This document shows, one piece after another, positions 1,288 to 25,683 of a DNA stretch of 27,316 nucleotides (positions within the stretch are counted from its first letter, which is position 1; every line of letters starts with the position of its first letter). Under the pieces are notes generated by a model, which was not told the DNA's origin, ran no database searches, and saw nothing but the letters and a program-made list of their open reading frames with translations. Both the position numbers and the translations under genes were made by a program. The stretch lies in the IMG/VR virus record IMGVR_UViG_2728369187_000003; one strand, 5' to 3'. The DNA is from a virus. Lineage: Duplodnaviria > Heunggongvirae > Uroviricota > Caudoviricetes.

Positions 1288-3729
1288 TTAAAAATCAGCC
1301 TGACTCGGGATCAGTTTTTGCCAGATAGCTGAAACGTATTTTGCCTGGTAACGAGCGTCATCAAGTGCATTATGGCGCTCACCTTCGAATGGGATAGCAG
1401 TTCTGGCATCGAAGTCTATGGCTTTCCCCAGCTCAACGATTGTGCGTACATCGCGATCGTTGCAGTAGCGCCACGGGCAGGGGATACCCTGTCGTTCGTA
1501 TGAACGGCGTAAAATCACGTTGTCGAAGTTGGCCCCATTACCCCAGACCTGAACAAAAAATTCACCGGAGTTTTCGTCGATAAATTCCCGCAATTGCAGT
1601 AGTGCATCATCTAACGGGATTTCATCGGTCATAATGGCAGACTGCGCTTCACGTGATTGCTTTAGCCACCATTTAATGACGTCACGATCAATGACTCCGC
1701 CAGCAGTATCCAGATCGATGGTCTTGCTAAATTCCGGTCCCATATCTCCGGTTTGTGGATCGAAAAATATTGCGCCTATTGAGATAATCGGGGCATCGGG
1801 ATTTTTTCCCATGGTTTCAAGGTCGATCATCAGATGAATCCCCGCTCTGCTGGTGGATGTGAGCTTATGATGACCATTCACCTTAATTAAGGGATCTGTC
1901 GCCTCGCCAGTTTTATTATCGCTGGCGTGATGCTGATTGCCGCCAGGGTTCTCCTTGTGTGGATGTTCAGCGCCTTCCATTTCCTCCGGATCATTTTCCT
2001 GAACTTCAACCTGATTCTCTTCATCGAATGTTTCCTGGTATGTTGCGTCGCCCATCACCGCGCCACAATCAGGGCAGTTGCCGCCACCGCTCTGACCGCA
2101 GGCGGTGCAGACTTTTTCCGGTTCCTGTTGCGCTACTGGTTCGGATTGTTTCGTTTCTGGCTCGTTTTGTAACGCATTTGGGCTGTTTTGTTCCGCTTTT
2201 TGGTCGTTCCGTTCCGATTCATGCTGGTTCTGGTTCACAGAATCGCGAGTCTGGATCCCCTTGACCCATTTCGGATCATTAGGGTCGCTAATCCCCTCAA
2301 CAAATTCACCACGCGATACAGCAAGTAACTTATCGGCGTCAGGCTGGCTGATATTGGCTGCCTGCATAATTTTGTTTACTTCGTCAGCGGTGACTTTTAC
2401 TTGGTTAGCGGAACTCACCTGCGACTGAGCATCCAGCGACTGCGCGTTCTGGCCATGTTCAGTTGTATCCGGTTCCATTGTTTCAGTTGTTGCCTGTTCA
2501 CCTGCCATTGCGTCAGATGGTTGTGGTTTTTCTTCTTCTGTTTCACGCTCAGTAACCACCTCGCGGTTAATTTCTTCCAGGATATCTTTTTCCGGCGTAT
2601 GCCGGGCAGCTGTGAGAGTTTCCTTGCTGGGGTTCTCGTGATCAGTTTCCGTCAAATAGGCGTTGATATACCCCTGAAGGCGTCCCGGGTAGTGATAAAA
2701 TTCAGAGTGTGCGCTTCGGATAAGTGCAAAAATAGCGGCGCGGGAATAGTCCAGAATACCCGGGGTTGCACGAAGTGCTGCGGACCATTCTTTGAACGGA
2801 CTTTCTTTGTTCAGGACTACTTCTTTTGCGCGACGATAAACGCTGCCCGGAATTTCATAAATATTAAAATCCATCGGAAGTGTGGCTGCTGCAATCTCCA
2901 CATCCAGTGTGTCGAGGGTGTGTACTAAATTCGGATTGCGATCGGTTTTGTTCCCACCGCCAGCATTAGCACCGGAAGCCGTGCGGGTGATGCGTGAAAC
3001 ACGATTTCCTTTCATCCACTCTTTTGTCAGCAGACCCCGATCAGTGTAGTCAGCGTCCAGGTATGCTTCGAAAAAAGCAGTTATTAGTCCCAGGTCTGAA
3101 TTACCAGGATTAGGGAAAACTTTGTCAGTGTCACGAACCAGTTTGTGGAGGTCGCGAATCTCCAGCGAGTCGAGCAGACTGGTTTTATGCGAAATAGCCA
3201 GGGCAGTAACAGCCGGTAGTTCTTCAGCCCGTGCAATGTGTAATGCCTGGAGTTCGTCGCGTGAAACGTGCGTTACTGGTTTTTCGCTGCCGTGTTGAGC
3301 AAGCCAACGAATGGGCAGTTCCTGACCGGAGACAGGCAGAAGCATGCTCTCCTCAATCTCAGTCATGTCTTCGCCGTTGATGTTGGTATTGTCAGTGCTG
3401 GCTGGTTTGTCCTGAACAGAGGGGGAAGGGCCGATAAATGTCATTGTGATGCCATCTTTCCCGCCTTTTTCATAGCGGTTGCAGAATTCAGTATCAAACA
3501 CGCCTTCTGGCGGAAGGTCGTCAACAACGGGCAAATTGACGCGGACGGGTTTTTTAAAGTCGTCTTCATCATAATCGTTGTCATCCATTGCGGTAATGCA
3601 GCGGGAGATTGCAACAGATAATTTTTTTGCTGTAGTCCAGTAAAAACCACCTTTAATTCCTAGGCGTTTTCTTACTTTGTCATTTTTTGCTTCGCAATAT
3701 AGTGCAAATTCTTCTTTATCAGTGCTCAT
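1288..3729 (-). CDS. Large early protein with C-terminal DEDDh (DnaQ-like) 3'-5' exonuclease domain
   Basis: 813-aa ORF; C-terminal region carries Exo I-like DLETMG, Exo II-like GNGANFDNVIL and Exo III-like HNALDDARY motifs; N-terminal half is acidic low-complexity with a CTACGQSGGGNCPDCG zinc-ribbon-like motif; GAGG ribosome-binding site 9 nt upstream of ATG. Confidence 0.7.
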   Translation of the reverse strand: MSTDKEEFALYCEAKNDKVRKRLGIKGGFYWTTAKKLSVAISRCITAMDDNDYDEDDFKKPVRVNLPVVDDLPPEGVFDTEFCNRYEKGGKDGITMTFIGPSPSVQDKPASTDNTNINGEDMTEIEESMLLPVSGQELPIRWLAQHGSEKPVTHVSRDELQALHIARAEELPAVTALAISHKTSLLDSLEIRDLHKLVRDTDKVFPNPGNSDLGLITAFFEAYLDADYTDRGLLTKEWMKGNRVSRITRTASGANAGGGNKTDRNPNLVHTLDTLDVEIAAATLPMDFNIYEIPGSVYRRAKEVVLNKESPFKEWSAALRATPGILDYSRAAIFALIRSAHSEFYHYPGRLQGYINAYLTETDHENPSKETLTAARHTPEKDILEEINREVVTERETEEEKPQPSDAMAGEQATTETMEPDTTEHGQNAQSLDAQSQVSSANQVKVTADEVNKIMQAANISQPDADKLLAVSRGEFVEGISDPNDPKWVKGIQTRDSVNQNQHESERNDQKAEQNSPNALQNEPETKQSEPVAQQEPEKVCTACGQSGGGNCPDCGAVMGDATYQETFDEENQVEVQENDPEEMEGAEHPHKENPGGNQHHASDNKTGEATDPLIKVNGHHKLTSTSRAGIHLMIDLETMGKNPDAPIISIGAIFFDPQTGDMGPEFSKTIDLDTAGGVIDRDVIKWWLKQSREAQSAIMTDEIPLDDALLQLREFIDENSGEFFVQVWGNGANFDNVILRRSYERQGIPCPWRYCNDRDVRTIVELGKAIDFDARTAIPFEGERHNALDDARYQAKYVSAIWQKLIPSQADF

Positions 3730-4014: not shown

Positions 4015-4199
4015 TGTGCACATCCTTTTGGCATCAGACGTAAACGGGCCAGCATTGAAACAATGCATACTTTATTTAATAACTCCCGTTCGTGTTTTCT
4101 TTTGTTAATGGCATCTTCAGTAAATACAGGATTACTGATAGTGACACCAATTTCAAAACAACCTTCAGACGTATTAACGTTTGGTAATAACNNNNNNNN
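4011..4199 (-). CDS. dicB: Cell division inhibitor DicB (5' end falls inside the N-run)
   Basis: Minus-strand translation of 4011-4191 reads (T)LLPNVNTSEGCFEIGVTISNPVFTEDAINKRKHERELLNKVCIVSMLARLRLMPKGCAQ*, matching E. coli DicB from memory; the first two to three codons lie in the N-run, so the start coordinate is inferred from the 62-aa length. Confidence 0.75.
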   Translation of the reverse strand, partial: XXXLLPNVNTSEGCFEIGVTISNPVFTEDAINKRKHERELLNKVCIVSMLARLRLMPKGCAQ

Positions 4200-4305
4200 N
4201 NNNNNNNNNNNNNNNNNNNNNNNNNNNNNNNNNNNNNNNNNNNNNNNNNNNNNNNNNNNNNNNNNNNNNNNNNNNNNNNNNNNNNNNNNNNNNNNNNNNN
4301 NNNNN
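4192..4305. other. Run of 114 N (assembly gap or masked sequence)
   Basis: Directly visible; covers the dicB start and the position where a dicF-like small RNA would be expected. Confidence 1.
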
Positions 4306-4963: not shown

Positions 4964-5119
4964 TCACTCACCTGAGTTTCTTTCCAGCCAGCGACGGGCA
5001 CCATTTTCGGTTTTAAACGTTTTGCTTTTGGTATACGTCATCGCGGTGAATGTGCCGTCCTGGTTGGGAAACACGCCGTACACCAGAGATTCGTTGTTGC
5101 CAAGATCGATAGTATCCAT
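4964..5119 (-). CDS. ydfA: YdfA-like DUF1391-type small protein (51 aa)
   Basis: Internal Met of the 78-aa track ORF, preceded by GAGG 4 nt upstream, gives MDTIDLGNNESLVYGVFPNQDGTFTAMTYTKSKTFKTENGARRWLERNSGE; first gene after the PL-like promoter. Confidence 0.6.
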   Translation of the reverse strand: MDTIDLGNNESLVYGVFPNQDGTFTAMTYTKSKTFKTENGARRWLERNSGE

Positions 5120-5298
5120 GTTGACCTCATTTCCCCTTAACGCCGGGGTAGCGGAACAAAAACCTGCTGCATAGTTATTAAAGTTGAACCCTGCCGTCAT
5201 GTTCTTACGCCTCGGGCTGGCTACTTAACCCCTGACCACTGCCTGGTAACTCGAAGTATTGCCCTGCATTCTGTGGGGTGGGGTGAGGGAATGAATGA

Positions 5299-5347
5299 AG
5301 TTTAGAAAAATGAACTTTTCAGGTCAATGTTTTTTTATCAAAACATT
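5299..5347 (-). promoter_or_regulatory. PL-like leftward early promoter with overlapping palindromic operator
   Basis: On the minus strand TTGACC-N17-TAAACT; the palindrome AATGTTTT-N6-AAAACATT (plus 5326-5347) overlaps the -35 element; the same operator core recurs in the cI-cro intergenic region. Confidence 0.45.
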
Positions 5348-5411
5348 TTAAGCAGGCAGCTGTTAAGCCATCACCACGATGGCATACAGTTAATCAAATA
5401 GATGAGGTTGG

Positions 5412-6050
5412 TTAAATATCTTGTTGAATTTTAAAGCATACGCCCAATATGCAAGATAGATCATCCAGCATAATTGAAGGGTAGCGAGGATTCGTGGGGA
5501 CTAAAAGAATATCCGGCCCTTCTATCTCCAGTTTACGAATGACAGGTGTTGTGGTCCCTTTGGGTAAGGCAAGGACAATATTTCCTGGTTGTACGGTTCG
5601 ATCGGGATCAACAAAAACTGTTGAACCATTTGGGATGGAAACTCCCCCACCAGATGTTGACATACTGTCACTCTCTAGAACAACTGCAAAGGTATTGGCC
5701 GGGATTTCTCCGACAAGCTGCACACAAGAGGTTATTGAGGAATTTTTCATATAATCACTCCAGCTTGCTGCCTGCTGAAGTGATAGTAGCGGAACCGTTT
5801 TTATCGGCGGTAAAGATAGATCAAGCGAATCACCTGTATTTAACTCTCCTCCATTAAGAAGCCAATTTTCGTTTACTTTCAATATCTTTGCCAGTGAACT
5901 TATGTAACGCGAGGACGGCGCTCCTCCACCGTTCATCCATTGACTTACGGAGCCTTTTGATGCGCCAGTGGCATTGACAAGGTCTTTGCCTTTCAGGTTT
6001 AGCGCATGCATACGTTGGGTTATGCGTTCAGATATTGTTTGCTTGCTCAT
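5412..6050 (-). CDS. CI-like prophage repressor (N-terminal HTH, C-terminal S24 LexA-like autopeptidase)
   Basis: 212-aa ORF; N-terminal HTH region; C-terminal SDSM...IRKL...LVPTNPRYPSI parallels lambda CI GDSM...FKKL...LQPLNPQYPMI; no ribosome-binding site upstream of the ATG, which overlaps an operator (leaderless, PRM-like). Confidence 0.9.
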   Translation of the reverse strand: MSKQTISERITQRMHALNLKGKDLVNATGASKGSVSQWMNGGGAPSSRYISSLAKILKVNENWLLNGGELNTGDSLDLSLPPIKTVPLLSLQQAASWSDYMKNSSITSCVQLVGEIPANTFAVVLESDSMSTSGGGVSIPNGSTVFVDPDRTVQPGNIVLALPKGTTTPVIRKLEIEGPDILLVPTNPRYPSIMLDDLSCILGVCFKIQQDI

Positions 6051-6113
6051 GTTTTGATTTTAAAACACAGATGGTTTTGTTTCTTGACTTTCTTTGGTTT
6101 TGATTATTAAACT
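6049..6113. promoter_or_regulatory. OR-like operator cluster and PR-like rightward promoter
   Basis: ATGTTTT-N6-AAAACA palindrome at 6049-6067 overlapping the cI start; further GTTTT/AAAAC inverted motifs at 6062-6079 and 6097-6112; TTGACT (6084-6089)-N18-TAAACT (6108-6113) ahead of cro. Confidence 0.5.
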
Positions 6114-6141
6114 TTTGGCGTTCAGTTTTATGGAGCGACTT

Positions 6142-6372
6142 ATGAAAAAATCAGAAGTATTAGGCTATTTTGGCGGAGTTGTTAAAACAGCCGCAGCTCT
6201 AGGAACGTCAAAAACCACAGTCAGCATGTGGGGGGAAGAGGTTCCGTGGAAATGGGCGTTGCTAATTCAGGCAGTCACTGCCGGGGCGCTCAAATATGAG
6301 TTACACATACCGACGGTTGTCATTCCCGGTTCTGATCATAATCCGCCTTCTAACCAAGGGGGGGATTCATGA
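6142..6372 (+). CDS. Cro-like small HTH regulator
   Basis: 76 aa from the ATG at 6142, with GGAG 6 nt upstream; divergent from cI; helix-turn-helix-like segment VVKTAAALGTSKTTVSMW. Confidence 0.7.
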   Translation: MKKSEVLGYFGGVVKTAAALGTSKTTVSMWGEEVPWKWALLIQAVTAGALKYELHIPTVVIPGSDHNPPSNQGGDS

Positions 6373-6794
6373 AAATCAAGCATGAACACATCCGCATGGC
6401 GATGAATGCCTGGGCGCGTCCTGATGGCGAAAAAGTTCCAGCAGCTGGAATAACCCAGGCTTATTTTGAGTTGGGTATGACGTTTCCTGAACTGTATGAC
6501 GACAGCCATCCGGAAGCCCTGGCTCGCAATACCCAGAAAATTTTCCGCTGGGTAGAGAAAGACACCCCTGATGCAGTTGAAAAAATTCAGGCGTTGTTAC
6601 CAGCGATCGAAAAGGCAATGCCACCTTTGCTGGTGGCCAGAATGCGCAGCCACAGTTCAGCTTATTTTCGGGAGCTGGTGGAGACGCGGGAGCGATTGGT
6701 GAGAGACGCTGATGATTTTGTCGCAGTGGCAATCGCCGGTTTCAATCAGATGAACCGTGGTGGCCCGGCAGGAAATGCTGTGGCAGTACATTGA
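6369..6794 (+). CDS. YdaT-family-like protein in the cII position (function unknown)
   Basis: 141-aa ORF whose ATG overlaps the cro stop (ATGA); begins MKIKHEHI, which I recall for YdaT-like proteins that follow Cro-like YdaS; not verified. Confidence 0.45.
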   Translation: MKIKHEHIRMAMNAWARPDGEKVPAAGITQAYFELGMTFPELYDDSHPEALARNTQKIFRWVEKDTPDAVEKIQALLPAIEKAMPPLLVARMRSHSSAYFRELVETRERLVRDADDFVAVAIAGFNQMNRGGPAGNAVAVH

Positions 6795-6865
6795 CTGACA
6801 ATAGCCATATCGAATCGCTTCCGGCAACTCGTGAGTAAAAAGATTCGGTATCAGAAGAGGTGAGT

Positions 6866-7936
6866 ATGGCTAACGCTTGGCTCAGATTATGGCATGACAT
6901 GCCAAATGACCCTAAGTGGCGAACAATTGCCAGGGTGTCAGGGCAGCCAATTGCAACAGTGATGGCAGTGTATATCCACCTCCTGGTGAGCGCGTCACGA
7001 AATGTCACGCGAGGTCACATTGATGTCACGACAGAAGATTTGGCAAGTGCGCTCGACGTGACAGAAGAGGTAATTGATTCAATTTTGCAGACGATGCAGG
7101 GGCGGGTACTTGATGGTGATTTAATCACTGGATGGGAAAAACGCCAGGTTCTTAAAGAGGACAACGGCAATATTTCGCAAACCGCAAAATCTCCTGCAGA
7201 GCGCAAGAGGGCGCAGCGAGAGAGGGAAAGAAAGCGGGAACAAAATGGCGATTGTCACGGCGCGTCACGAAATGTCACGCACATGTCACGACGAGTCACG
7301 ACAGATAAAGATACAGATAAAGATACAGATCAAGAAGATCAAAACACTATGGTCCATGGCGTAAAAAACGCCACGAACCAGGCAGGGGATGTTCAGACCG
7401 TCAATCTTGGTCAGCCAGCAGGCACGACACCGGAAGCCGATTCAGCGTATGCGCTGAAAGCCGATTCGGGCGCTGTGCAGCAGGTGATGACCGCAAGGCC
7501 GGAGCAATCACACCAACTGCAGCAGCCTGAAGCCGATTCCGCCATTCAGCGGGAAGCCGATCGGGTAGTCCCGGAAAACACCGGGCAGCCTGTGGGACGA
7601 GTGGATTATCCGGATGTGTTCGAACAGGTCTGGCGGGAATACCCGTTGCGTGCTGGGGCAAACCCGAAGAAATCCGCTTTCAGTGCTTGGAAGGCCAGAT
7701 TACGCGAGGGGGTGTCACCAGAGGCCATGCTGGATGGCGTGAGGCGTTACGCAAGATACCTTGCGGCTACCGGGAAAACGGGAACGGAATTTGTTCAGCG
7801 AGCAACGACGTTTTTTGGACCGGACCGGAATTTTGAAAACCCCTGGCTGCTCCCGGTAAGCGGCACGAACAACCAGCGTTGTGTGAATCATATTTCTGAA
7901 CCGGATACCGAAATTCCACCGGGCTTCAGGGGGTAA
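6866..7936 (+). CDS. Replication initiator (O-like) with origin iterons inside the coding sequence
   Basis: 356 aa from the ATG at 6866 (GAGG 5 nt upstream); occupies the O position after cro and the cII-like gene; two internal GTCACG iteron arrays and an AT-rich tandem repeat lie inside it. Confidence 0.65.
   Translation: MANAWLRLWHDMPNDPKWRTIARVSGQPIATVMAVYIHLLVSASRNVTRGHIDVTTEDLASALDVTEEVIDSILQTMQGRVLDGDLITGWEKRQVLKEDNGNISQTAKSPAERKRAQRERERKREQNGDCHGASRNVTHMSRRVTTDKDTDKDTDQEDQNTMVHGVKNATNQAGDVQTVNLGQPAGTTPEADSAYALKADSGAVQQVMTARPEQSHQLQQPEADSAIQREADRVVPENTGQPVGRVDYPDVFEQVWREYPLRAGANPKKSAFSAWKARLREGVSPEAMLDGVRRYARYLAATGKTGTEFVQRATTFFGPDRNFENPWLLPVSGTNNQRCVNHISEPDTEIPPGFRG
6991..7030. repeat. 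Iteron array 1: four GTCAC(G/A) repeats at roughly 10-bp spacing
   Basis: GTCACG at 6994, 7004 and 7025, GTCACA at 7014; the first 21 nt are identical to the start of array 2. Confidence 0.7.
7251..7330. repeat. Iteron array 2 (five GTCACG repeats) followed by an AT-rich tandem repeat; candidate origin of replication
   Basis: GTCACG at 7254, 7264, 7274, 7285 and 7295, then gataaagataca repeated about 2.5 times at 7302-7330; the architecture parallels ori-lambda inside gene O. Confidence 0.65.
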
Positions 7937-7976
7937 GTGTTGATTTCTGGTCATGAGGTAATTTTCAGGAGGACTT

Positions 7977-8399
7977 GTGGCAAAAGTTTTTACACAAGAA
8001 GAGCGAGAAAAAATTAAAGGGCAGGTTGTTGAACTCGTACGCCAGAGTGGGCGTGAGACGTTACGGCAACTGGAAGTCAAAACAGGTGCGACAAGATATC
8101 TGATGAGCGTTCTCGCAAGAGAGCTGGTTGCCAGCGGCGATGTATACAACTCTGGTTACGGGTTATTCCCGTCTGAACAGGCGCGTAAGGACTGGCAAAA
8201 TGCCCGTAAAAAGCTCTCAAGGGCAAAGCTGAAGAAACCATCTGCGGTTGATCCGGACCTTATCTGGTCATTACCTGACGGAGAAATACGTCGCTACGAC
8301 AGGCGTCAGAACATAATCTGTCGCGAGTGCCGGAAGAGTGAAGTTATGCAGCGCATATTGTCGTTTTATCAGGGGGATGTTCGGTATTTATTGAAGTGA
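7977..8399 (+). CDS. Hypothetical protein (140 aa) downstream of the replication initiator
   Basis: GTG start with AGGAGG 4 nt upstream; no recognisable helicase-loader features; last gene before the AT-rich island. Confidence 0.4.
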   Translation: MAKVFTQEEREKIKGQVVELVRQSGRETLRQLEVKTGATRYLMSVLARELVASGDVYNSGYGLFPSEQARKDWQNARKKLSRAKLKKPSAVDPDLIWSLPDGEIRRYDRRQNIICRECRKSEVMQRILSFYQGDVRYLLK

Positions 8400-8684
8400 C
8401 GAGATTAAAGTGCATTAGTTCAGATGCAAATTGACATTTTGTGGCACAGGGTAGAGCTAGCGTGGTTGTCCGCTTTGTGTCAAGAGAGGACGTTCATCCA
8501 TAACTAATTGCTGATCAATACTCAGCAGCATTATGCCCATGTCGCTTTTATTTCACTTTCACTAATGATTGATTTTGGTTCTAGTAGAAGACATAATATT
8601 AGAATATGTATTTGCGTAAGAAATAATTAGTTTCCAATGCATTGGTTTAGTAGAGTGTTTAATAACATCAAGAGGTAGTTTTGG

Positions 8685-9218
8685 ATGACAACCTGGGTGG
8701 AAGTTGTTGATACGGCTGTGAAGATTGGATTTGGTGGTATAATAACGCTGACAGGTACATTTATTATTTCAAAAATGAATCACAAACATGAATTTGATAA
8801 AGATAAAAGTCGTCGCTATTATGATTCATTAGAATCTGTAAGCACTCAAATTGAGGATATGACACATATATCCTTACGCTATTGGGCTTTGATAATTGAA
8901 TGGGTTAGAAATAAGGAACAAAAGGGATTGGATCTTACCAGAGAAAGGCAAGAGGAGTTAAATAAAACAAAATTAGATTTATTTGACAATTTTAAAAGCT
9001 TGACAGTTGCAGAGTCGAAGCTTTTGCTTTTAGGTTTAACTGACACATCAGTTGCTTTAAGAGACTACGGTGATTATTTAAAAGCAATGCGGAGAAATTA
9101 TTATGATGGCAAACCTGATATTAAGGAGTCAGATCTTGAAAATGTAAGGGTTACGTTACTTTACAAACGTAAAGTCCTGTTTGATTTTTTGTCTAGGGAT
9201 TATAAAAAAGGAATATAG
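8685..9218 (+). CDS. Hypothetical membrane-anchored protein (177 aa), island gene A
   Basis: AT-rich codon usage; one N-terminal hydrophobic segment (VKIGFGGIITLTGTFIISKM) followed by a charged, probably helical region; AGAGG upstream. Confidence 0.55.
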   Translation: MTTWVEVVDTAVKIGFGGIITLTGTFIISKMNHKHEFDKDKSRRYYDSLESVSTQIEDMTHISLRYWALIIEWVRNKEQKGLDLTRERQEELNKTKLDLFDNFKSLTVAESKLLLLGLTDTSVALRDYGDYLKAMRRNYYDGKPDIKESDLENVRVTLLYKRKVLFDFLSRDYKKGI

Positions 9219-9595
9219 AATCATAGGTTTTAAGTTAAGGGATGCTATTGACTTCCTTTTCAGCAACCTAGCTTCTAGTTATGATGATAATTATAAATCT
9301 GAAGCTTAGTTCATCATAGTCATATTGGATTAGTAATGATATTTACTCGATGCTTCTAAGTTGTAATGAAAATGCTTACTATACGCTCATTGAAAACCTC
9401 ATGCCTCTCCCTTGATCGCTTGTGGCTGGAACGGACAAAACCACATTTTATATTCATTTTTGCTAGTGGTTTAATATAGCACTATATGCTTTTTATTTTG
9501 CTATGATTGATGTCTTAAGAATTCTATGAACATCTAAAATAGGTGATTAACATAACATCGTTGTTTTATAACAAGTAGAATAAGGAGTCAGTTTT

Positions 9596-10519
9596 ATGCC
9601 ATCACTAGATACTATAGTTTTAAACCTCCTAAGAGGGGCTGTTCCTGAGAATGCTGATGAACTTTGTCAGACCTGGAAGAGCTATAAACACACGGTCGAA
9701 CTTGCAGAGGATGCCCTAGGATCAACAATGAATGCAACTAGTAGGCGCATCGAGTTTGACTCTAAAACTATCGATTTCTTTTGGTTATTTGGGTTTAGTA
9801 CATGGTTTACGATTGAGACATATGCTCCAGCCCTAGTAAAAGCATGCTTACTAGGTGTGACGTTAGAGTCGGCTTTAGAATCTGATGAAGAACGTGGCCA
9901 ATTTGAACTAAATTATAAACAGCATTTGTATATTTCAAAGTCTTTGCTAAGCGTTGCGAATACGGCTGATATTACATGGCCTCAAGATATTCCTTTTCCA
10001 ACAGATGCGCGAGATAGTTTGAATAATATTCAAGAACAGGCTGTTTTTGATCTAGTAGCATTAGCATTGTCTTTTTCTATACTTCATGAGTATAAACATG
10101 TTCAAGCACGAGCCGAAGAAAAAAAACATGAAAATCCCCAAGAGAAGGATGAAGAAGAGTTAGCCTGTGACTCTTGGGCTCGTGAATATATAACTAAGGG
10201 CGTCGGAGTCTATGCTAAAAAAGCTGGGCATACCTATGAAGAGGTCATGCAAAAACGAGCAATGGGGATAACACTTGCCGCCTTTACTATACACGCTTTA
10301 ACATCAGATATCGATAAATGGGGTGGTGAAGAGTATCCATCTATAGCAGTAAGGATTCAAACAATGATAGGGGGGTACAACCTTTCAGATTCATCGCCCT
10401 TCTGGTGTTTTACAGCTTGTCTTCTCATCGCGGTGATGAGACAGGAAAACCGTAAGCTTGATTATAAAGCTACAACATATAAAGAGTTTGTTACTAGGCT
10501 CCTTTCGGAATTACACTAA
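9596..10519 (+). CDS. HExxH zinc-metallopeptidase-like protein (307 aa), island gene B
   Basis: TAAGGAG ribosome-binding site 8 nt upstream; HEYKH motif at residues 164-168 within FSILHEYKHVQ; a hairpin terminator follows. Confidence 0.6.
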   Translation: MPSLDTIVLNLLRGAVPENADELCQTWKSYKHTVELAEDALGSTMNATSRRIEFDSKTIDFFWLFGFSTWFTIETYAPALVKACLLGVTLESALESDEERGQFELNYKQHLYISKSLLSVANTADITWPQDIPFPTDARDSLNNIQEQAVFDLVALALSFSILHEYKHVQARAEEKKHENPQEKDEEELACDSWAREYITKGVGVYAKKAGHTYEEVMQKRAMGITLAAFTIHALTSDIDKWGGEEYPSIAVRIQTMIGGYNLSDSSPFWCFTACLLIAVMRQENRKLDYKATTYKEFVTRLLSELH

Positions 10520-10535
10520 ATAATTTTGACATAAT

Positions 10536-10572
10536 AATAGACAGATTAGAATGATATCTGTCTATTATTTGC
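10536..10572 (+). terminator. Hairpin terminator after island gene B
   Basis: Perfect 11-bp inverted repeat AATAGACAGAT / ATCTGTCTATT with a 9-nt loop, followed by a T-rich tail (ATTATTT). Confidence 0.5.
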
Positions 10573-10980
10573 ATTAGTCGTGACTTGATCTGACACATGG
10601 CTTTGAAAGATTAAGAGTTACTGGTATTGATATGGGGCCGAAGTGTTATACAATACAAGAGGTAATTCTCATATTCCATACTAACAATCCTATCATCAAA
10701 CACAACGCCGGTTACTTAAGGTGGCTGAGGAACTCAGCAACGTATCCGAAGCCAGCAAAGCCATGGTCCTTTCGCAGTAAGTTGCGTAAATAAGGTGTTT
10801 TTATCCCTTGAAGCATTCTACAAAGCCAGCTCCTCGCTCAAACAGACGTGCCTGTTCACCAATCTGCCCGCTTGGTATCAAGGGACGCCAGTAACGCGAT
10901 ACAGGCGATACAGGGTGAATTCCTTCCTTAACTGCCCTCACATCATCTTTAATAATAGTTTACCCTGATATAACGGATGA

Positions 10981-12360
10981 TCAGAAGTCCATCAGGTCAT
11001 CGAATTTCTGAGGTGGCTCTTGTTTTCGAACACTATCTCCCTGATGAATCTCCGTCTCACTTGTTTGGTATTTTACACCAGTAATTTTATGATAAGTCAT
11101 ACTGTTGGTTTTCAACAGTAGTGCATCATTTTTGTCATGCGAGGATGAAAATGAACCCATATGTCTCGGTTTTATTTGTTCCTCAACTATTAACTGAATT
11201 TCCGGAACAAAAGCATACTGGTCATCTTCGATGTGTTCATACATCTCAACATTATATCGGCGAGATTTATCTGCGGCATGCCTGACGCCGGAAGACTTAT
11301 TAAACAGAACGACATTATATCCTATCTCAGCATCCTCACCGTTGGCATCTACCTGGGTAGATTTAAAGCTGACACCATCAAGCTTAAATTTATTTCGGTC
11401 ACCTAGGTAATCGGCAACCACTTGGGTGATGAGGTAATCACTGTCCTGCCTTTTTCCAAAAGTAGGAAGCGTCAACTTACGGGAAAGCGTACTGAAAAAA
11501 ATCGCGCGCTCACTGGTTTTGCGAGTCTGAGGATCAAATTTACTACCTGAGCCGAAACTAATCGAGTCAAGGGCAGAAATGTCCAGCACTTTTAGCTCGC
11601 GTAACGGTACAAAACAGGCCGTTACTACAATACTGCCGACGGGCGGCCTTACTTCAGCAATTGCCAAATTCACTGAGGTTGCACCGTAAAATACTGAAAT
11701 CCCCTGTGCGTTCATACGGCCCGACCGAGCCAAAGTTGATGGGGGAGGTCCAAAATTTTTCTCGGGCTGCTCCAAGGCTTGCTTTACTTCCTCTTGGTCC
11801 TCAAAGACCCTTGCACGAAAAAGATGAACCTCATCAGTCAGAGTTTTTATCGGTGAATTACTGTCTCTGTTTTTTAGTTTATCGATATCACTGAAAAGTG
11901 AATCCAGGAAATCATTAACTTCACGGTTAAAATATCGTGTTTCTTTCATAAGGGAGTCAGTGGCTTTACTCCAGGTATGCGCAAGCTCTCCGCTATAGTG
12001 ATTTATGTGCCGATAAACAAACCCATCATTATACCGGATGTAGTCATAATCGTTATGCGGATTATATTCATCACAAAGAAATTCATAAATATCTTCAGCT
12101 ACGTCCCATTCGACGCCCAGTTCTCCGCAGATGACATCCTGCGCGCTATCACCGCGCCCGGAATCATAGATATCCTCATACATATCATAGTAGTACTCAA
12201 AAACCTCATTCATCATCTTGAGAATATATTTGAGGTGGATGTTTTTACGCTTCCTTTTGCAGTAAGAGCAAATCCGAACATTATTTCCGGTTTTTATTAT
12301 ATGCTGCATGACATATTTATCGTTCACGCATTTATGACAAATATACTTATCTTTCCACAT
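10981..12360 (-). CDS. Zinc-ribbon plus RES-like domain protein (459 aa), island gene C
   Basis: N-terminal CHKC...CSYC zinc-ribbon-like motif; central SGRMNAQGISVFYGATSVNLAIAEV fits the R-x9-Y-x10-E spacing I recall for RES-domain NAD-targeting toxins; convergent with gene B. Confidence 0.55.
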   Translation of the reverse strand: MWKDKYICHKCVNDKYVMQHIIKTGNNVRICSYCKRKRKNIHLKYILKMMNEVFEYYYDMYEDIYDSGRGDSAQDVICGELGVEWDVAEDIYEFLCDEYNPHNDYDYIRYNDGFVYRHINHYSGELAHTWSKATDSLMKETRYFNREVNDFLDSLFSDIDKLKNRDSNSPIKTLTDEVHLFRARVFEDQEEVKQALEQPEKNFGPPPSTLARSGRMNAQGISVFYGATSVNLAIAEVRPPVGSIVVTACFVPLRELKVLDISALDSISFGSGSKFDPQTRKTSERAIFFSTLSRKLTLPTFGKRQDSDYLITQVVADYLGDRNKFKLDGVSFKSTQVDANGEDAEIGYNVVLFNKSSGVRHAADKSRRYNVEMYEHIEDDQYAFVPEIQLIVEEQIKPRHMGSFSSSHDKNDALLLKTNSMTYHKITGVKYQTSETEIHQGDSVRKQEPPQKFDDLMDF

Positions 12361-12427
12361 TTTTTACCCACTCATCATCAGCTGATACAAGGTCACTTTC
12401 CTGCAATTTTATAATTAAATCAAGCAT
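12347..12427 (-). CDS. Candidate 26-aa upstream ORF overlapping the start of island gene C
   Basis: GGAGGGGG ribosome-binding site 8 nt upstream of the ATG; MLDLIIKLQESDLVSADDEWVKNVER*; its stop overlaps the gene C ATG. Confidence 0.3.
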   Translation of the reverse strand: MLDLIIKLQESDLVSADDEWVKNVER

Positions 12428-12706
12428 AAAAACCCCCTCCTCACCTCAATGCTTTCAGTGTAAAAATAATTAGTAATACGCTGTACTGGTAATAATTATG
12501 AACTTCCTCTTCTCGCTCAAAGCGGACTAGAAAGTTAGCTTGCGTCGGACTTGGCGTATTTAAAGAAGTGCTGGTGGTGACTGGTTGTTGTGTTCCATTT
12601 CTACAGAACAAAATCACAGAAACTATACCCAATAGTTGTATTGAATCACTGACGAGACAGCCTCATATTTATCAGGACTGGTGTACGTCCAATACAGGAG
12701 GTTGTG

Positions 12707-12796
12707 GTGCTGGTTCTCAAATGTGCGCTGGCTATTGCTGCTGTAATGGCAATTTATTGCCTTGCTGTTGTTCTTATGGATCGCCTTTCTGATTGA
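12707..12796 (+). CDS. Candidate 29-aa hydrophobic peptide
   Basis: AGGAGG 5 nt upstream of a GTG start; MLVLKCALAIAAVMAIYCLAVVLMDRLSD*; a single predicted transmembrane helix with charged ends. Confidence 0.35.
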   Translation: MLVLKCALAIAAVMAIYCLAVVLMDRLSD

Positions 12797-12897
12797 TTTT
12801 ATATTGGCGAGGTGACGTGAGTTAAGTAGAATTGCTGCGGGTGCTTGAGGCTATCTGCCTCAGGCATGAACACCAAAGGCAGATAGAGAAAAGCCCC

Positions 12898-14773
12898 AGT
12901 TAACATTACGCGTCCTGCAAGACGCTTAACATTAATCTGAGGCCAATTTCATGCTAGACACATGTAGGTTAGCCTCTTACGTGCCGAAAGGCAAGGAGAA
13001 GCAGGCTAGTGTTAACACCAAGCTGTAATGTCCCCTTTGAACCATTCTAAAATGTCCCCAGACAATTCTCTGGGGGATTTTTCATGATCAAAGAGACTGT
13101 TACGATGAGTCATAAGGAACTCCACCGACTTCAGATTATTCAGGAGTCAATTAATCGACATATTACTCAGGAACAAGCTGCGGCACGCATTGGCATTTCT
13201 ATTCGGCAGGTTAAACGTCTGGTGCAACGGTATAGAAATGAAGGGCCTTCTGGTCTGGTTTCCCACCGACGTGGAAAGCGTCCTAATAATTCCTTTTCTA
13301 CTGAATTCAGAGCAACAGTAATTTCACTCCTCAAAGGCCGTTACGCTGATTTTGGACCTACGTTTGCGTGCGAAAAATTGCGCGAGATACACGGTTTATC
13401 TTTATCCGTTGAAACTCTCAGAAAGTGGATGATAGAAGAGGGGTTATGGCGTGAACGCCGTCGTAAAATTGCCCGTATATATCAACGCCGCATGCGACGA
13501 CCATCTTACGGTGAACTGATCCAGATTGATGGCTCACCTCATGACTGGTTTGAAAATCGAGGCCCCAGATGTACACTGATCGTTTTCATTGATGATGCCA
13601 CCAGTGCGTTGATGGCGTTGCGTTTTGTGCCTGCTGAAACAACCCGGGCTTACATGGAAACCCTCCGGGGTTACCTTAATGATCATGGCGTACCGCTCGC
13701 TCTCTACTCTGATAGACACAGTATATTCAGGGTAAATAACCCAGAGCGGGAAGGTGAGCTGACCCAGTTCACTCGTGCGATAAAGACACTGGGCATCGAG
13801 CCAATCCATGCCAACAGCCCGCAGGCAAAAGGGCGGGTAGAGCGCGCCAATCAGACACTACAGGACAGGCTGGTCAAAGAAATGCGGCTTCAGAATATCA
13901 GTGATATTGAAACAGCAAATGCATGGTTGCCGACCTTTATTGAAGCCTATAACAACCGGTTCGCTACGTCGCCTCGTACTACTGATAATGCTCATCTTGA
14001 TGAGCACCATTCTGAAGAGGAACTGGGTTATATCTTCAGCCTACAGGCGAAGCGCGTTCTGTCTAAAAATCTCACTTTCCAGTACAAAAGCAGTGCGTTT
14101 CAGGTACGCAGTGAGGGCCGGGGATATCGACTTAGGCATTCGGTTGTTACTGTATGCGAGAACTTTGACGGTGAAATTAACGTTCTGTATGACGGGAAAG
14201 CGCTGGGCTGGGAAAAGTATGTTGATGGCCCGGAGCCTATACCACTGGATGATGAAAAGAGTGTCCATGAACGAGTGGATAATGCCCGTATTGATTTACG
14301 CTCAAAATACTATGTTAAACCTAAAGCTGACCATCCCTGGCTTACGCGCCGAACGCAAAGTCATCAGCAAGTTAAGCCCCCGAAGTTACCTAAAAAGAAG
14401 CCTGATCCCGATAAAAAAGATTGAAACCAAGATCGATTCGGTTGAGTGCATATCCATTCATAGGGTAGATTCTTAAGTCGCGTTTCTGGTGTTCATTTTC
14501 GGGTGGTTTGTTACTTGTTTTACCGGGGATATGCCAGAAACGCGCTGAGTCAGTCTGGGCGGTGCGCGTAATGAGGCGTTATGGTAAATAGCCTATGCTA
14601 ATGTCCGCTAAGAGCAAGAAGCGGAAGTTGGCAGTTTTGTGGACTGTCCCCACAAAAGTGACTACAGAAATAGTTGCAATTCATAATTGATCATGGGTTG
14701 TCAGTTAAACTCGTGGCGATTTAAATAGACTAATTGGGAGTGCGTCCATTACTTATATCTTGTAATGTTAACT
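12898..14773 (+). mobile_element. Insertion sequence carrying a DDE transposase (ends uncertain)
   Basis: The transposase gene is flanked by a 12-bp inverted match, AGTTAACATTAC at 12898-12909 and its reverse complement at 14762-14773; hairpin-forming inverted repeats sit inside both arms; no direct repeats found. Confidence 0.4.
13084..14424 (+). CDS. DDE transposase with N-terminal HTH (IS481/ISNCY-like, family not resolved)
   Basis: 446-aa ORF; N-terminal HTH-like region (ITQEQAAARIGISIRQVKRLV), central integrase-core-like region (IQIDGSPHDW...LIVFIDDATS...) and a basic C-terminal tail. Confidence 0.75.
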   Translation: MIKETVTMSHKELHRLQIIQESINRHITQEQAAARIGISIRQVKRLVQRYRNEGPSGLVSHRRGKRPNNSFSTEFRATVISLLKGRYADFGPTFACEKLREIHGLSLSVETLRKWMIEEGLWRERRRKIARIYQRRMRRPSYGELIQIDGSPHDWFENRGPRCTLIVFIDDATSALMALRFVPAETTRAYMETLRGYLNDHGVPLALYSDRHSIFRVNNPEREGELTQFTRAIKTLGIEPIHANSPQAKGRVERANQTLQDRLVKEMRLQNISDIETANAWLPTFIEAYNNRFATSPRTTDNAHLDEHHSEEELGYIFSLQAKRVLSKNLTFQYKSSAFQVRSEGRGYRLRHSVVTVCENFDGEINVLYDGKALGWEKYVDGPEPIPLDDEKSVHERVDNARIDLRSKYYVKPKADHPWLTRRTQSHQQVKPPKLPKKKPDPDKKD

Positions 14774-16323: not shown

Positions 16324-16473
16324 ATGAAGCAGCAAAAGGCGATGTTAATCGCCCTGATCGTCATCTGTTNNNNNNNNNNNNNNNNNNNNNNNNNNNNNNN
16401 NNNNNNNNNNNNNNNNNNNNNNNNNNNNNNNNNNNNNNNNNNNNNNNNNNNNNNNNNNNNNNNNNNNNNNNNN
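16324..16473 (+). CDS. hokD: Hok-family toxin (hokD/relF-like), interrupted by an N-run
   Basis: Begins MKQQKAMLIALIVIC, the Hok N-terminus, then runs into the N-run; the true 3' end is not visible and the 66-aa track ORF is an artifact of the gap. Confidence 0.7.
16370..16473. other. Run of 104 N (assembly gap or masked sequence)
   Basis: Directly visible; lies inside the hok-like gene. Confidence 1.
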
Positions 16474-17183: not shown

Positions 17184-18233
17184 GTGCGGGTATTACTTAG
17201 ACCTGTTCTGGTGCCTGAGCTTGGGCTGGTGGTCCTTAAGCCGGGCCGTGAATCCATACAGATATTTCATAATCCTCGAGTGCTGGTGGAACCGGAACCA
17301 AAAAGCATGCGTAATCTGCCATCCGGAGTCGTTCCTGCCGTTGGCCAGCCGCTGGCGGAAGACAAAACATTGCTGCCGTTTTTTAGTAACGAACGGGTGA
17401 TTCGTGCTGCTGGCGGCGTTGGCTCATTGTCTGACTGGCTATTACGTCATGTTACATCCTGCCAGTGGCCTAATGGCGATTACCATCACACTGAAACAGT
17501 CATTCACCGTTATGGTACCGGCGCAATGGTGTTGTGTTGGCACTGCGACAACCAACTGCGTGACCAGACATCGGAATCACTGGAGCTGCTTGCTCAACAA
17601 AATCTGACAGCATGGGTGATTGACGTCATCCGTCACGCAATAAGCGGTACGCAGGAGCGGGAATTATCTTTGGCTGAATTATCCTGGTGGGCGGTCTGCA
17701 ATCAGGTGGTGGATGCACTACCTGAGGCTGTATCGCGTCGTTCGCTGGGATTACCAGCGGAAAAAATCTGCTCGGTGTACCGCGAAAGCGACATCGTACC
17801 GGGAGAGCAGACCGCCACCAGCATATTGAAACAACGCACAAAAAATCTTGCACCGTTGCCTTACGCCCACCAGCAACAAAAACTACCACAGGAAAAGATG
17901 GTGGTAAGCATCACCGTTGATCCAGAGTCTCCGGAATCTTTCATGAAGCTGCCTAAACGTCGCCGCTGGGTTAAGGAGAAATACACACGTTGGGTTAAGA
18001 CACAGCCGTGTGCTTGCTGCGGTATGCCAGCCGACGATCCGCATCATCTGATTGGTCACGGGCAGGGCGGAATGGGAACAAAAGCACATGATCTCTTTGT
18101 GTTGCCTTTGTGCAGAAAGCATCACAACGAGCTGCATACGGATACAGTGGCATTTGAAGAGAAGTATGGCTCCCAACTGGAGCTGATATTTCGTTTTATC
18201 GATCGCGCGCTGGCAATTGGCGTACTGGCGTAA
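17184..18233 (+). CDS. ydfU: YdfU-like DUF968 protein with C-terminal Cys/His cluster
   Basis: GTG start with GGAGG 4 nt upstream gives 349 aa starting MRVLLRPVLVPELG; C-terminal CACCGMPADDPHHLIGHGQGG...CRKHHNELH resembles a zinc-binding or HNH-like motif. Confidence 0.65.
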   Translation: MRVLLRPVLVPELGLVVLKPGRESIQIFHNPRVLVEPEPKSMRNLPSGVVPAVGQPLAEDKTLLPFFSNERVIRAAGGVGSLSDWLLRHVTSCQWPNGDYHHTETVIHRYGTGAMVLCWHCDNQLRDQTSESLELLAQQNLTAWVIDVIRHAISGTQERELSLAELSWWAVCNQVVDALPEAVSRRSLGLPAEKICSVYRESDIVPGEQTATSILKQRTKNLAPLPYAHQQQKLPQEKMVVSITVDPESPESFMKLPKRRRWVKEKYTRWVKTQPCACCGMPADDPHHLIGHGQGGMGTKAHDLFVLPLCRKHHNELHTDTVAFEEKYGSQLELIFRFIDRALAIGVLA

Positions 18234-18246
18234 GTGGAGAACGAGC

Positions 18247-18999
18247 ATGAACCTTGAAGCCTTACCAAAATATTACTCCCCAAAATCTCCAAAATTGAGC
18301 GATGACGCTCCAGCGACAGGCACCGGTTGTTTAACAATTACGGATGTAATGGCAGCGCAGGGGATGGTGCAGTCGAAAGCACCACTTGGGTTGGCCTTAT
18401 TTCTGGCAAAAGTTGGTGTTCAGGACCCTCAGTTTGCGATTGAAGGCCTGCTAAATTACGCGATGGCACTGGATAACCCGACATTGAACAAATTGAGTGA
18501 AGAAATCCGGTTACAGATTATTCCTTACCTCGTGAGTTTTGCCTTTGCTGATTACTCCAGGTCTGCGGCAAGTAAGGCTCGCTGTGAGCATTGTTCAGGT
18601 ACGGGATTTTATAATGTATTGCGCGAAGTGGTGAAACACTACAGACGCGGGGAATCTGTAATCAAGGAAGAATGGGTGAAGGAACTATGTCAGCATTGCC
18701 ATGGTAAGGGCGAAGCCAGCACAGCGTGCAGAGGGTGTAAGGGTAAAGGGATTGTTCTGGATGAAAAAAGAACCCGGTTTCATGGCGTACCGGTATATAA
18801 GATTTGTGGGCGTTGTAATGGAAACCGGTTTAGTCGTTTACCGACCACGCTGGCACGACGTCATGTCCAGAAGCTGGTACCAGACCTGACCGATTATCAG
18901 TGGTATAAGGGGTATGCGGACGTCATTGGTAAACTGGTAACAAAGTGCTGGCAGGAAGAAGCATACGCGGAAGCGCAATTGAGGAAGGTGACGAGATAA
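18247..18999 (+). CDS. Late-gene antiterminator Q-like protein (250 aa)
   Basis: ATG at 18247 with GGAG 7 nt upstream; Cys-rich zinc-finger-like region (CEHCSGTG...CQHCHGKG...CRGCKGKG...CGRCNG); immediately upstream of a late promoter and terminator. Confidence 0.7.
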   Translation: MNLEALPKYYSPKSPKLSDDAPATGTGCLTITDVMAAQGMVQSKAPLGLALFLAKVGVQDPQFAIEGLLNYAMALDNPTLNKLSEEIRLQIIPYLVSFAFADYSRSAASKARCEHCSGTGFYNVLREVVKHYRRGESVIKEEWVKELCQHCHGKGEASTACRGCKGKGIVLDEKRTRFHGVPVYKICGRCNGNRFSRLPTTLARRHVQKLVPDLTDYQWYKGYADVIGKLVTKCWQEEAYAEAQLRKVTR

Positions 19000-25119: not shown

Positions 25120-25683
25120 ATGGAAGTCAACAAAAAGCAGCTGGCTGACATTTTCGGTGCGAGTATCCGTACCATTCAGAACTGGCAGGAACAGGGAATG
25201 CCCGTTCTGCGAGGCGGTGGCAAGGGTAATGAGGTGCTTTATGACTCTGCCGCCGTCATAAAATGGTATGCCGAAAGGGATGCTGAAATTGAGAACGAAA
25301 AGCTGNNNNNNNNNNNNNNNNNNNNNNNNNNNNNNNNNNNNNNNNNNNNNNNNNNNNNNNNNNNNNNNNNNNNNNNNNNNNNNNNNNNNNNNNNNNNNNN
25401 NNNNNNNNNNNNNNNNNNNNNNNNNNNNNNACTGAAGAATGCCAGAGACTCCGCTGAAGTGGTGGAAACCGCATTCTGTACTTTCGTGTTGTCGCGGATC
25501 GCAGGTGAAATTGCCAGTATTCTCGACGGGATCCCCCTGTCGGTGCAGCGGCGTTTTCCGGAACTGGAAAACCGACATGTTGATTTCCTGAAACGGGATA
25601 TCATCAAAGCCATGAACAAAGCAGCCGCGCTGGATGAACTGATACCGGGGTTGCTGAGTGAATATATCGAACAGTCAGGTTAA
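25120..25683 (+). CDS. nu1: Terminase small subunit Nu1 (internal N-run)
   Basis: MEVNKKQLADIFGASIRTIQNWQEQGMPVLRGGGKGNEVLYDSAAVIKWYAERDAEIENEKL ... LKNARDSAEVVETAFCTFVLSRIAGEIASILDG...EYIEQSG, matching lambda Nu1 from memory; the middle is masked. Confidence 0.9.
   Translation: MEVNKKQLADIFGASIRTIQNWQEQGMPVLRGGGKGNEVLYDSAAVIKWYAERDAEIENEKLXXXXXXXXXXXXXXXXXXXXXXXXXXXXXXXXXXXXXXXXXXLKNARDSAEVVETAFCTFVLSRIAGEIASILDGIPLSVQRRFPELENRHVDFLKRDIIKAMNKAAALDELIPGLLSEYIEQSG
25306..25430. other. Run of 125 N (assembly gap or masked sequence)
   Basis: Directly visible; lies inside nu1. Confidence 1.

Follow-up and report, generated by a model that had tools for sequence, protein, structure and literature searches.

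The 27,316-nucleotide (nt) stretch of IMG/VR virus record IMGVR_UViG_2728369187_000003, here called the window, corresponds to the early part of an integrated lambdoid prophage and contains on its plus strand the gene of a replication initiator or "replisome organizer" (6866-7936; 356 amino acids (aa) from the ATG at 6866, with an alternative GTG start at 6860). Region 6990-7380 of this gene is probably, with a likelihood of about three in four, the replication origin of the prophage, located within the gene for its initiator; both binding by the initiator and initiation at this site are what we infer from the sequence. The principle of an origin inside the initiator gene is textbook knowledge and follows the design of phage lambda, here on an unrelated protein family. 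What is new is that a very common initiator family, unnamed in RefSeq E. coli, is given a candidate origin, that this origin has a bipartite layout in which one of two repeat arrays overlaps the coding sequence of the DNA-binding domain, and that the dual-coding constraint is unusually clear.

Repeat arrays and an AT-rich tract within the initiator gene

Array 1 (6994-7030, plus strand) is formed by four direct repeat units (iterons), GTCACG at 6994, 7004 and 7025 and GTCACA at 7014, which follow each other at 10, 10 and 11 base pairs (bp). Array 2 (7254-7300, plus strand) is situated 260 bp away and comprises five perfect GTCACG units at 7254, 7264, 7274, 7285 and 7295 with spacings of 10, 10, 11 and 10 bp. 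The original prediction, which was made from the letters of the window and its open reading frames (ORFs), had described two arrays of four to five GTCACG units at a spacing of roughly 10 bp, and this description holds. A single inverted core (7057-7062, minus strand) reads CGTGAC on the plus strand and encodes D-V-T in the turn of the predicted helix-turn-helix. GTCACG occurs 18 times on both strands of the window compared to 8.3 ± 2.5 times in shuffled sequences, with none of 100 shuffles reaching 18, and nine of the 18 occurrences fall into the 307 bp of 6994-7300, compared to an expectation of about 0.09 for this interval. Such clustering has a Poisson probability of about 1e-15, or about 1e-13 when corrected for window placement, and no other iteron-like array exists elsewhere in the 27-kilobase (kb) window.

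An identical stretch of 21 nt, GCGCGTCACGAAATGTCACGC, is found in both arrays on the plus strand (6990-7010 and 7260-7280). The identity had been expected for the first 21 nt of each array; the match is indeed exact, but the copy in array 2 starts at the second unit and not at the first. The identity suggests a recent sequence exchange between the arrays or their homogenisation. On the minus strand the iterons form a promoter-like match (7278-7251), which was considered as an operator or promoter and rejected, as promoter-like matches occur at chance level (3 versus 2.0 ± 1.2).

Array 2 is directly followed by an AT-rich, purine-rich tract (7301-7345, plus strand) in which ACAGATAAAGAT is repeated 2.9 times at 7301-7335 with 95% matches according to Tandem Repeats Finder (about 2.5 copies had been predicted), with low GC content continuing to about 7345. 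The tract encodes DKDTDKDTDQED and spans, together with array 2, codons 130-157. The 12-nt repeat is the GC minimum of the gene, with 30% GC and an AT skew of +0.57 on an A-rich coding strand, and the tract is proposed to be a DNA-unwinding element. Just beyond it, 50 nt past the last iteron, lies an imperfect palindrome (7350-7380, not assigned to a strand) with 13-nt arms and a 5-nt loop, which may be part of the origin, although this is uncertain.

The initiator gene is, judging by its sequence, a member of a large family of replication initiators from proteobacterial prophages. PHROG 3729 "replication initiation protein" matches it from end to end (E 1e-257), other initiator, replisome-organizer and DnaD-like PHROGs match each half separately (E 4e-6 and 2e-4 for the replisome-organizer families), and the NCBI name for close relatives is "phage replisome organizer". 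Pfam gave no significant match for the protein, including none to Phage_rep_O; PF09681 (Phage_rep_org_N) reaches 12.8 bits, below its cut-off of 23.3 bits (E 0.12), in a sub-threshold but near full-length alignment of residues 5-122 with profile positions 1-118 of 121. PF17948, the DnaT-like C-terminal domain, has no match in the window protein and is present in some of its homologs, and the NCBIfam model for DnaT matches the last 24 residues only (18 bits versus a cut-off of 201).

An AlphaFold model built on 72 homologs predicts a confident N-domain (aa 1-98; 6866-7159) with three helices, a loop (46-55), a helix-turn-helix (56-77) and a β-wing, followed by a basic helix (aa 110-130; 7193-7255), then a linker predicted to be disordered (aa 137-241), with pLDDT under 50 from residue 137 onwards, and a small C-domain (aa 245-320) which is variable across the family and, by weak similarity, DnaD/DnaT-like. 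The N-domain is predicted to fold as a winged helix that resembles the DnaD-NTD and the winged-helix domains of plasmid and ORC initiators. On this model, array 1 (codons 43-55) would code for the last part of a helix and for the loop directly before the helix-turn-helix, and array 2 (codons 130-145) the beginning of the disordered linker. Both the PHROG match and the predicted fold of the N-domain support the view that the arrays are located inside a replication initiator gene, as had been proposed.

The N-domain family comprises 1044 proteins at E <1e-5, with relatives in prophages of Gamma- and Betaproteobacteria and some Alphaproteobacteria. Of 5426 complete E. coli genomes, 2535 have a match to the initiator gene, and in 1647 the match covers 80% or more of the gene; there are up to four copies per genome under the RefSeq label "hypothetical protein". 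E. coli LF82 carries the gene at 99.7% identity, and phages Tritos and Evi have it too. Many NCBI entries for its relatives are marked "partial", suggesting frequent assembly breaks within the gene.

Recurrence of the arrays and constraint on the DNA

For a comparison across the family, 281 loci were collected from genomes, viral contigs and phage records and reduced to 71 representatives at 90% nucleotide identity; the initial scan of viral contigs gave near-identical copies only, and divergent queries had to be used as well. The two arrays recur at matching positions of the gene, at about nt 129-160 and 387-430, with the units of array 1 at nt 129, 139, 149 and 160, and this layout is shared by prophages of E. 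coli, Pseudomonas, Aeromonas, Bordetella, Stenotrophomonas and Ralstonia, among others. When the loci are searched for their own core words, 249 and 260 cores are found in the two array zones compared to 45 in the remaining 36.7 kb of gene sequence, and the distance from core to core is 10 bp in 253 cases and 11 bp in 70, with other distances being rare.

The core word differs between loci, and it does so in both arrays at once: the two arrays of a locus belong to one and the same core class in 65 out of 65 cases (GTCAC in 39, GTAAC in 7 and GAACG in 19) with no off-diagonal case. A fourth core word, GCAACG(C), is used by Ralstonia phage Firinga, whose initiator has 38% amino-acid identity and whose cores are located at nt 130, 140, 151 and 161 and at nt 401, 411, 421 and 431, followed by a purine-rich run. 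When aligned, the core words have ACG(C) in common and differ in the three preceding bases. The inverted core is present in 33 of the 39 representatives of the GTCAC class and is rare in the other classes. Conservation in relatives had been named beforehand as a point on which the prediction of an origin would stand or fall; the arrays are kept, and the core word changes in both together. The iteron classes are not independent samples, and they are not simple clades either: they are interleaved, with 10 of 72 nearest neighbours belonging to another class, and the identity outside of the array-encoded residues is 0.67-0.70 within classes versus 0.64-0.66 between them. A conserved helical phasing between the two arrays was also considered and rejected, as the distance between them varies (about 233, 260 and 271 bp).

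The AT-rich tract recurs together with array 2. In 59 of 65 loci, the lowest-GC window of 36 nt in the gene begins between -10 and +30 nt from where array 2 ends, and these windows have a mean GC content of 0.30 compared to 0.54 for the whole gene and a coding-strand purine content of 0.74, with a motif CAGATAAAGATA or CAGATACAGATA that is common to all iteron classes. Among near-identical E. coli copies, the copy number of the 12-mer ranges from about 1.5 to 3.5 and substitutions are found mainly in the iteron spacers. A palindrome behind the AT-rich tract, as known from lambda, is not confirmed as a family trait here: hairpins of at least 8 bp follow the tract in 12 of 65 loci and are found in 20 of 187 control windows, which amounts to no enrichment. 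A CCCCC..GGGGG mini-palindrome is located 44-85 nt past array 2 in 13 of the 65 loci versus two occurrences in 49.6 kb elsewhere in the genes.

Array 1 can also grow. The loop encoded by it is longer by 7 codons in 7 of the 71 representatives and by 15 codons in three, and an insertion of 21 nt corresponds to two iteron units with the reading frame preserved. In an E. albertii locus (L005, 3001-4053) and about 28 viral contigs (e.g. L235, L242 and L276), array 1 has expanded in this way from four to six units, adding the seven residues TCHGVSL to the winged-helix loop.

The codon usage within the arrays allows selection on the DNA to be separated from selection on the protein. Codons of array 1 that lie inside cores are nearly fixed (T48 as ACG in 33 of 34 loci, G50 as GGT in 34 of 34, H51 as CAC in 33 of 33 and S44 as TCA in 33 of 34), whereas the neighbouring invariant residues R49, A60 and L63 use four to six codons each; codon entropy is 0.23 bits inside cores versus 1.54 bits for the neighbours (P 2e-6). 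The first synonymous test was partly circular, with two positions selected by the DNA motif, and the figures reported are those of unforced positions alone. In a repeat of the analysis with loci picked by protein sequence only, VT is encoded in both arrays by GTC-ACG (GTG-AC in the inverted copy) in the GTCAC class and by GTA-ACG (GTT-AC in the inverted copy) in the GTAAC class. Furthermore, the cores occupy all three reading frames, and the 39 loci of the GTCAC class have 39 different array-2 peptides. With cores in all frames and synonymous codons frozen, selection acts at the DNA level, and the peptide repeats arise as by-products. This includes the ASRNVT that occurs twice in the translation and its DKDTDKDTD stretch, both of which were present as the original prediction had stated. 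The arrays are a clean case of constraint on DNA that fixes synonymous codons and moulds the sequence of a protein, including invariant residues of a folded domain. For annotation this is a warning, as conserved motifs such as SRNVTRGH and the low-complexity DKDKD linkers are translated origin DNA and not motifs of protein function.

A natural domain exchange is found in Shigella phage 75/02 Stx, where the C-domain of the window (82% nucleotide identity) is joined to an unrelated N-domain (locus L285, 1894-2982) and the gene is without GTCACG-type arrays. In this comparison, the arrays follow the N-domain and are absent where it has been replaced. The fusion gene is followed by a DnaC-like gene. 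Its linker region carries a purine-rich (GAACAG)n repeat encoding QEQEQE and then a palindrome resembling the one at 7350-7380, which suggests a mosaic joint at the AT-rich or linker region. Another fusion is seen in Serratia and Pantoea (L040, 3001-4191, and L041, 3001-4305), with the N-domain joined to a segment that looks GIY-YIG-like by eye (YVYYV...GISRNPWAR); both genes are without the usual arrays or AT-rich linker. In these two, CTACGTA repeats are clustered at about nt 326-371 of the gene, in L041 also at 657-691, and may be a fifth iteron type or merely the coding of YVY. The gene downstream of the initiator varies as well, being DnaB in Firinga and cyanophage Cy-LDV1, an annotated replicative helicase in an Aeromonas phage and a 609-aa protein in Pseudomonas phages, with no counterpart detected among the scanned ORFs of the window. 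The variation of C-domain and downstream gene fits an origin-recognition module combined with interchangeable modules for helicase recruitment.

The proposed origin and other explanations

Head-to-tail oligomers of winged-helix proteins are able to bind direct repeats. In the proposed mechanism, the winged-helix N-domain would bind the direct iterons (core TGTCACG) head-to-tail, with one domain per helical turn and all on one face of the DNA. The complex on array 2, possibly bridged to array 1 or wrapped with it, would then melt the 30%-GC purine-rich tract at 7301-7345, whereupon the variable C-domain would bring in the replicative helicase. This helicase would be provided by the host as DnaB-DnaC, since a scan of ORFs in the window detected neither a helicase gene nor a loader gene of the phage.

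Several points weigh against this model. Clear arrays are absent at both positions in six of the 71 representatives, of which four keep an AT-rich tract with one or two vestigial units and two differ in architecture. Some arrays (L025 and L027) mix GTCAC and GTAAC cores, which means that a one-base switch may be tolerated and need not reflect a real change in specificity. The concerted change of cores could be aided by gene conversion from one array to the other, as the 21-nt identity suggests, although the long-term retention of matched cores would still need selection. The recognition helix and the wing of the helix-turn-helix domain are invariant across iteron classes and point to no determinant of specificity, and array 1 has no defined role in the proposed origin. 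Neither a palindrome conserved across the family nor a DnaA box with at most one mismatch in 6800-7500 was found, and DnaA boxes are not enriched in the window, although an origin requires neither of these. Finally, the literature searched contains no origin mapping or binding experiment for any member of the family, nor an account of this origin; few subscription-journal papers were among it, and an older description may exist.

An explanation that keeps the arrays as genuine binding sites of the initiator but has replication start elsewhere, with the arrays serving control through autoregulation by a transcriptional roadblock, titration or handcuffing, is unlikely but has some merit. There are two separate arrays, one of them in the coding region of a folded domain and away from the AT-rich tract, and iteron plasmids and Vibrio chromosome II use extra initiator sites as negative controls (PMC3401445). 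The direct contact of array 2 in 59 of 65 loci with a conserved, strand-asymmetric AT-rich tract, the hallmark of an unwinding element, speaks against it, as do the lack of any further array in the window and a layout within the gene that matches that of ori-lambda. A control role for array 1 alone would be compatible with an origin in this region. By contrast, there is next to no room for the view that the repeats merely reflect a repeated peptide such as SRNVT, or an internal gene duplication, and have no function as DNA. The protein does contain ASRNVT twice, and the residues for which array 1 codes do not vary within the family; however, a period of 10-11 bp is not a multiple of three, the same DNA cores are surrounded by a different array-2 peptide in every one of the 39 loci, and synonymous positions in the cores are frozen next to conserved codons that vary. 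The frame of the cores, the synonymous codons and the choice of VT codon by class, concordant in both arrays, effectively refute it.

TGTCA direct repeats at 11-bp spacing resemble a pho box, and the TGTCA core and one-turn spacing of the arrays do resemble the sites of winged-helix proteins of the OmpR/PhoB type. Binding of the arrays by a conserved host factor, either such a response regulator or DnaA, in place of the phage initiator is nevertheless very improbable: the core word varies between GTCAC, GTAAC, GAACG and GCAAC in hosts that have conserved PhoB and DnaA in common, the arrays track the N-domain of the phage protein and are lost with it, and 6800-7500 holds no DnaA box with at most one mismatch. 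Two sets of four to five direct repeats at one-turn spacing also recall parC of plasmid R1, in which 11-bp repeats form two groups of five. The arrays are scarcely credible as a centromere-like site for partition, or as a site for packaging or recombination, in an integrating lambdoid prophage with an integrase gene (1-1026) and no partition ATPase or adaptor gene nearby, the neighbours being cI, cro, a cII/YdaT-like gene and DUF977; moreover, the arrays are tied to the replication-initiator domain in every genomic context examined. An origin embedded in the initiator gene remains the preferred explanation, and every part of the original interpretation that can be checked on the sequence was borne out.

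The position of array 1 in the gene allows a further reading, in which it would be more than a second binding cluster. It encodes the surface loop of aa 44-55 in the winged-helix domain, and any change of the iteron word therefore rewrites that loop. The array-encoded loop and the nearby basic helix are the sole systematic differences between iteron classes in the DNA-binding domain. Besides the loop, the residues that best separate the classes are those of the basic helix (100-125), where K114, R115 and Q117 change to V, R and Y or to A, K and W depending on the class and the GAACG class has a deletion of nine residues. Were the loop to help in recognising the iterons, the binding site and its reading head would share the same DNA. 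We regard this as improbable; if true, it would provide a hard-wired, coupled switching of origin and initiator specificity and a route to replication incompatibility groups among co-resident prophages. At least four iteron classes are defined, and these may determine the replication specificity of co-resident prophages or their incompatibility; the arrays also offer a cis element that can be tested, in a replication module that is very common in prophages.

Prophage context and comparison with known systems

The gene neighbourhood of the initiator is that of a lambdoid prophage. The integrase gene (1-1026), an ExoVIII-like gene (1288-3729) and an S24/HTH repressor gene in the position of cI (5412-6050) are located on the minus strand; a P22-Cro-like gene (6094-6372) and a YdaT/CII-like gene (6369-6794) precede the initiator gene, and a DUF977/Ren-like gene (7977-8399) follows it. 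The antiterminator Q gene (18217-18999) comes after a number of accessory genes. Between the replication module and Q lies an accessory or defence island (8685-14424) with a 177-aa ORF without annotation (8685-9218), a Lit-like Peptidase_U49 protein (9596-10519; Pfam 3.7e-7, PADLOC Lit 1.3e-18), a RES-domain protein with a HEPN/RES N-terminal domain (10981-12360, minus strand) and an IS481-like transposase (13084-14424). ORFs that span the masked runs of N at 4192-4305, 16370-16473 and 25306-25430 are artefacts, and an Rfam scan of 5000-9000 gave no match.

Compared to the origins of iteron plasmids with initiators such as RepA, π and TrfA, in which iterons have a length of about 17-22 bp, the arrays described here have a core of 6-7 bp at a period of 10-11 bp, are not accompanied by DnaA boxes and lie inside a coding sequence. 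A closer parallel is the replisome organizer G38P of phage SPP1, which binds an origin inside its own gene (oriL, 35801-36151, falls within gene 38, 35578-36348), as the initiator would do here. Binding in SPP1 takes place at two separate regions, oriL and oriR (Missich et al. 1997, cited in PMC5615212), much as there are two separate array regions in the window; the second site is distant in the SPP1 genome, whereas here it is 260 bp away within the same gene. Further differences are that SPP1 encodes its own loader and helicase, neither of which was detected in this prophage, and that the two proteins show no detectable relationship, with the score for PF09681 below threshold and an hhalign comparison of the family with G38P finding nothing (probability 0.1%).

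The layout within the gene matches that of ori-lambda, as had been proposed. Ori-lambda consists of four iterons at nt 349-433 of the O gene followed by a 39-bp high-AT region, all inside of O, and lambda O still complements when in-frame deletions remove parts of the AT-rich region but not when iteron 4 is deleted (PMC6022878). The initiator of the window is not homologous to O (hhalign probability of 0.1% for the family profile), and no gene for a P-like loader was detected. In lambda, each iteron is an 18-bp site with hyphenated dyad symmetry to which two molecules of the initiator bind (PMC6022878), in contrast to the direct-repeat cores found here. Array 1 is an addition that lambda lacks, located 260 bp upstream in the sequence coding for the folded winged-helix domain (codons 43-55), so that a location in the linker-encoding DNA, as in ori-lambda, applies to array 2 and the AT-rich tract. 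For these two elements the correspondence is close: array 2 occupies nt 389-435 of its gene, and the roughly 40 bp of AT-rich DNA with an A-rich coding strand follow directly on its 3' side (nt 436-470), as in lambda. The order of genes is also shared, with cI, cro, a cII-like gene, the initiator and a Ren-like gene in succession, and in both systems the N-domain of the initiator would carry the specificity for the origin and the C-domain would be exchangeable.

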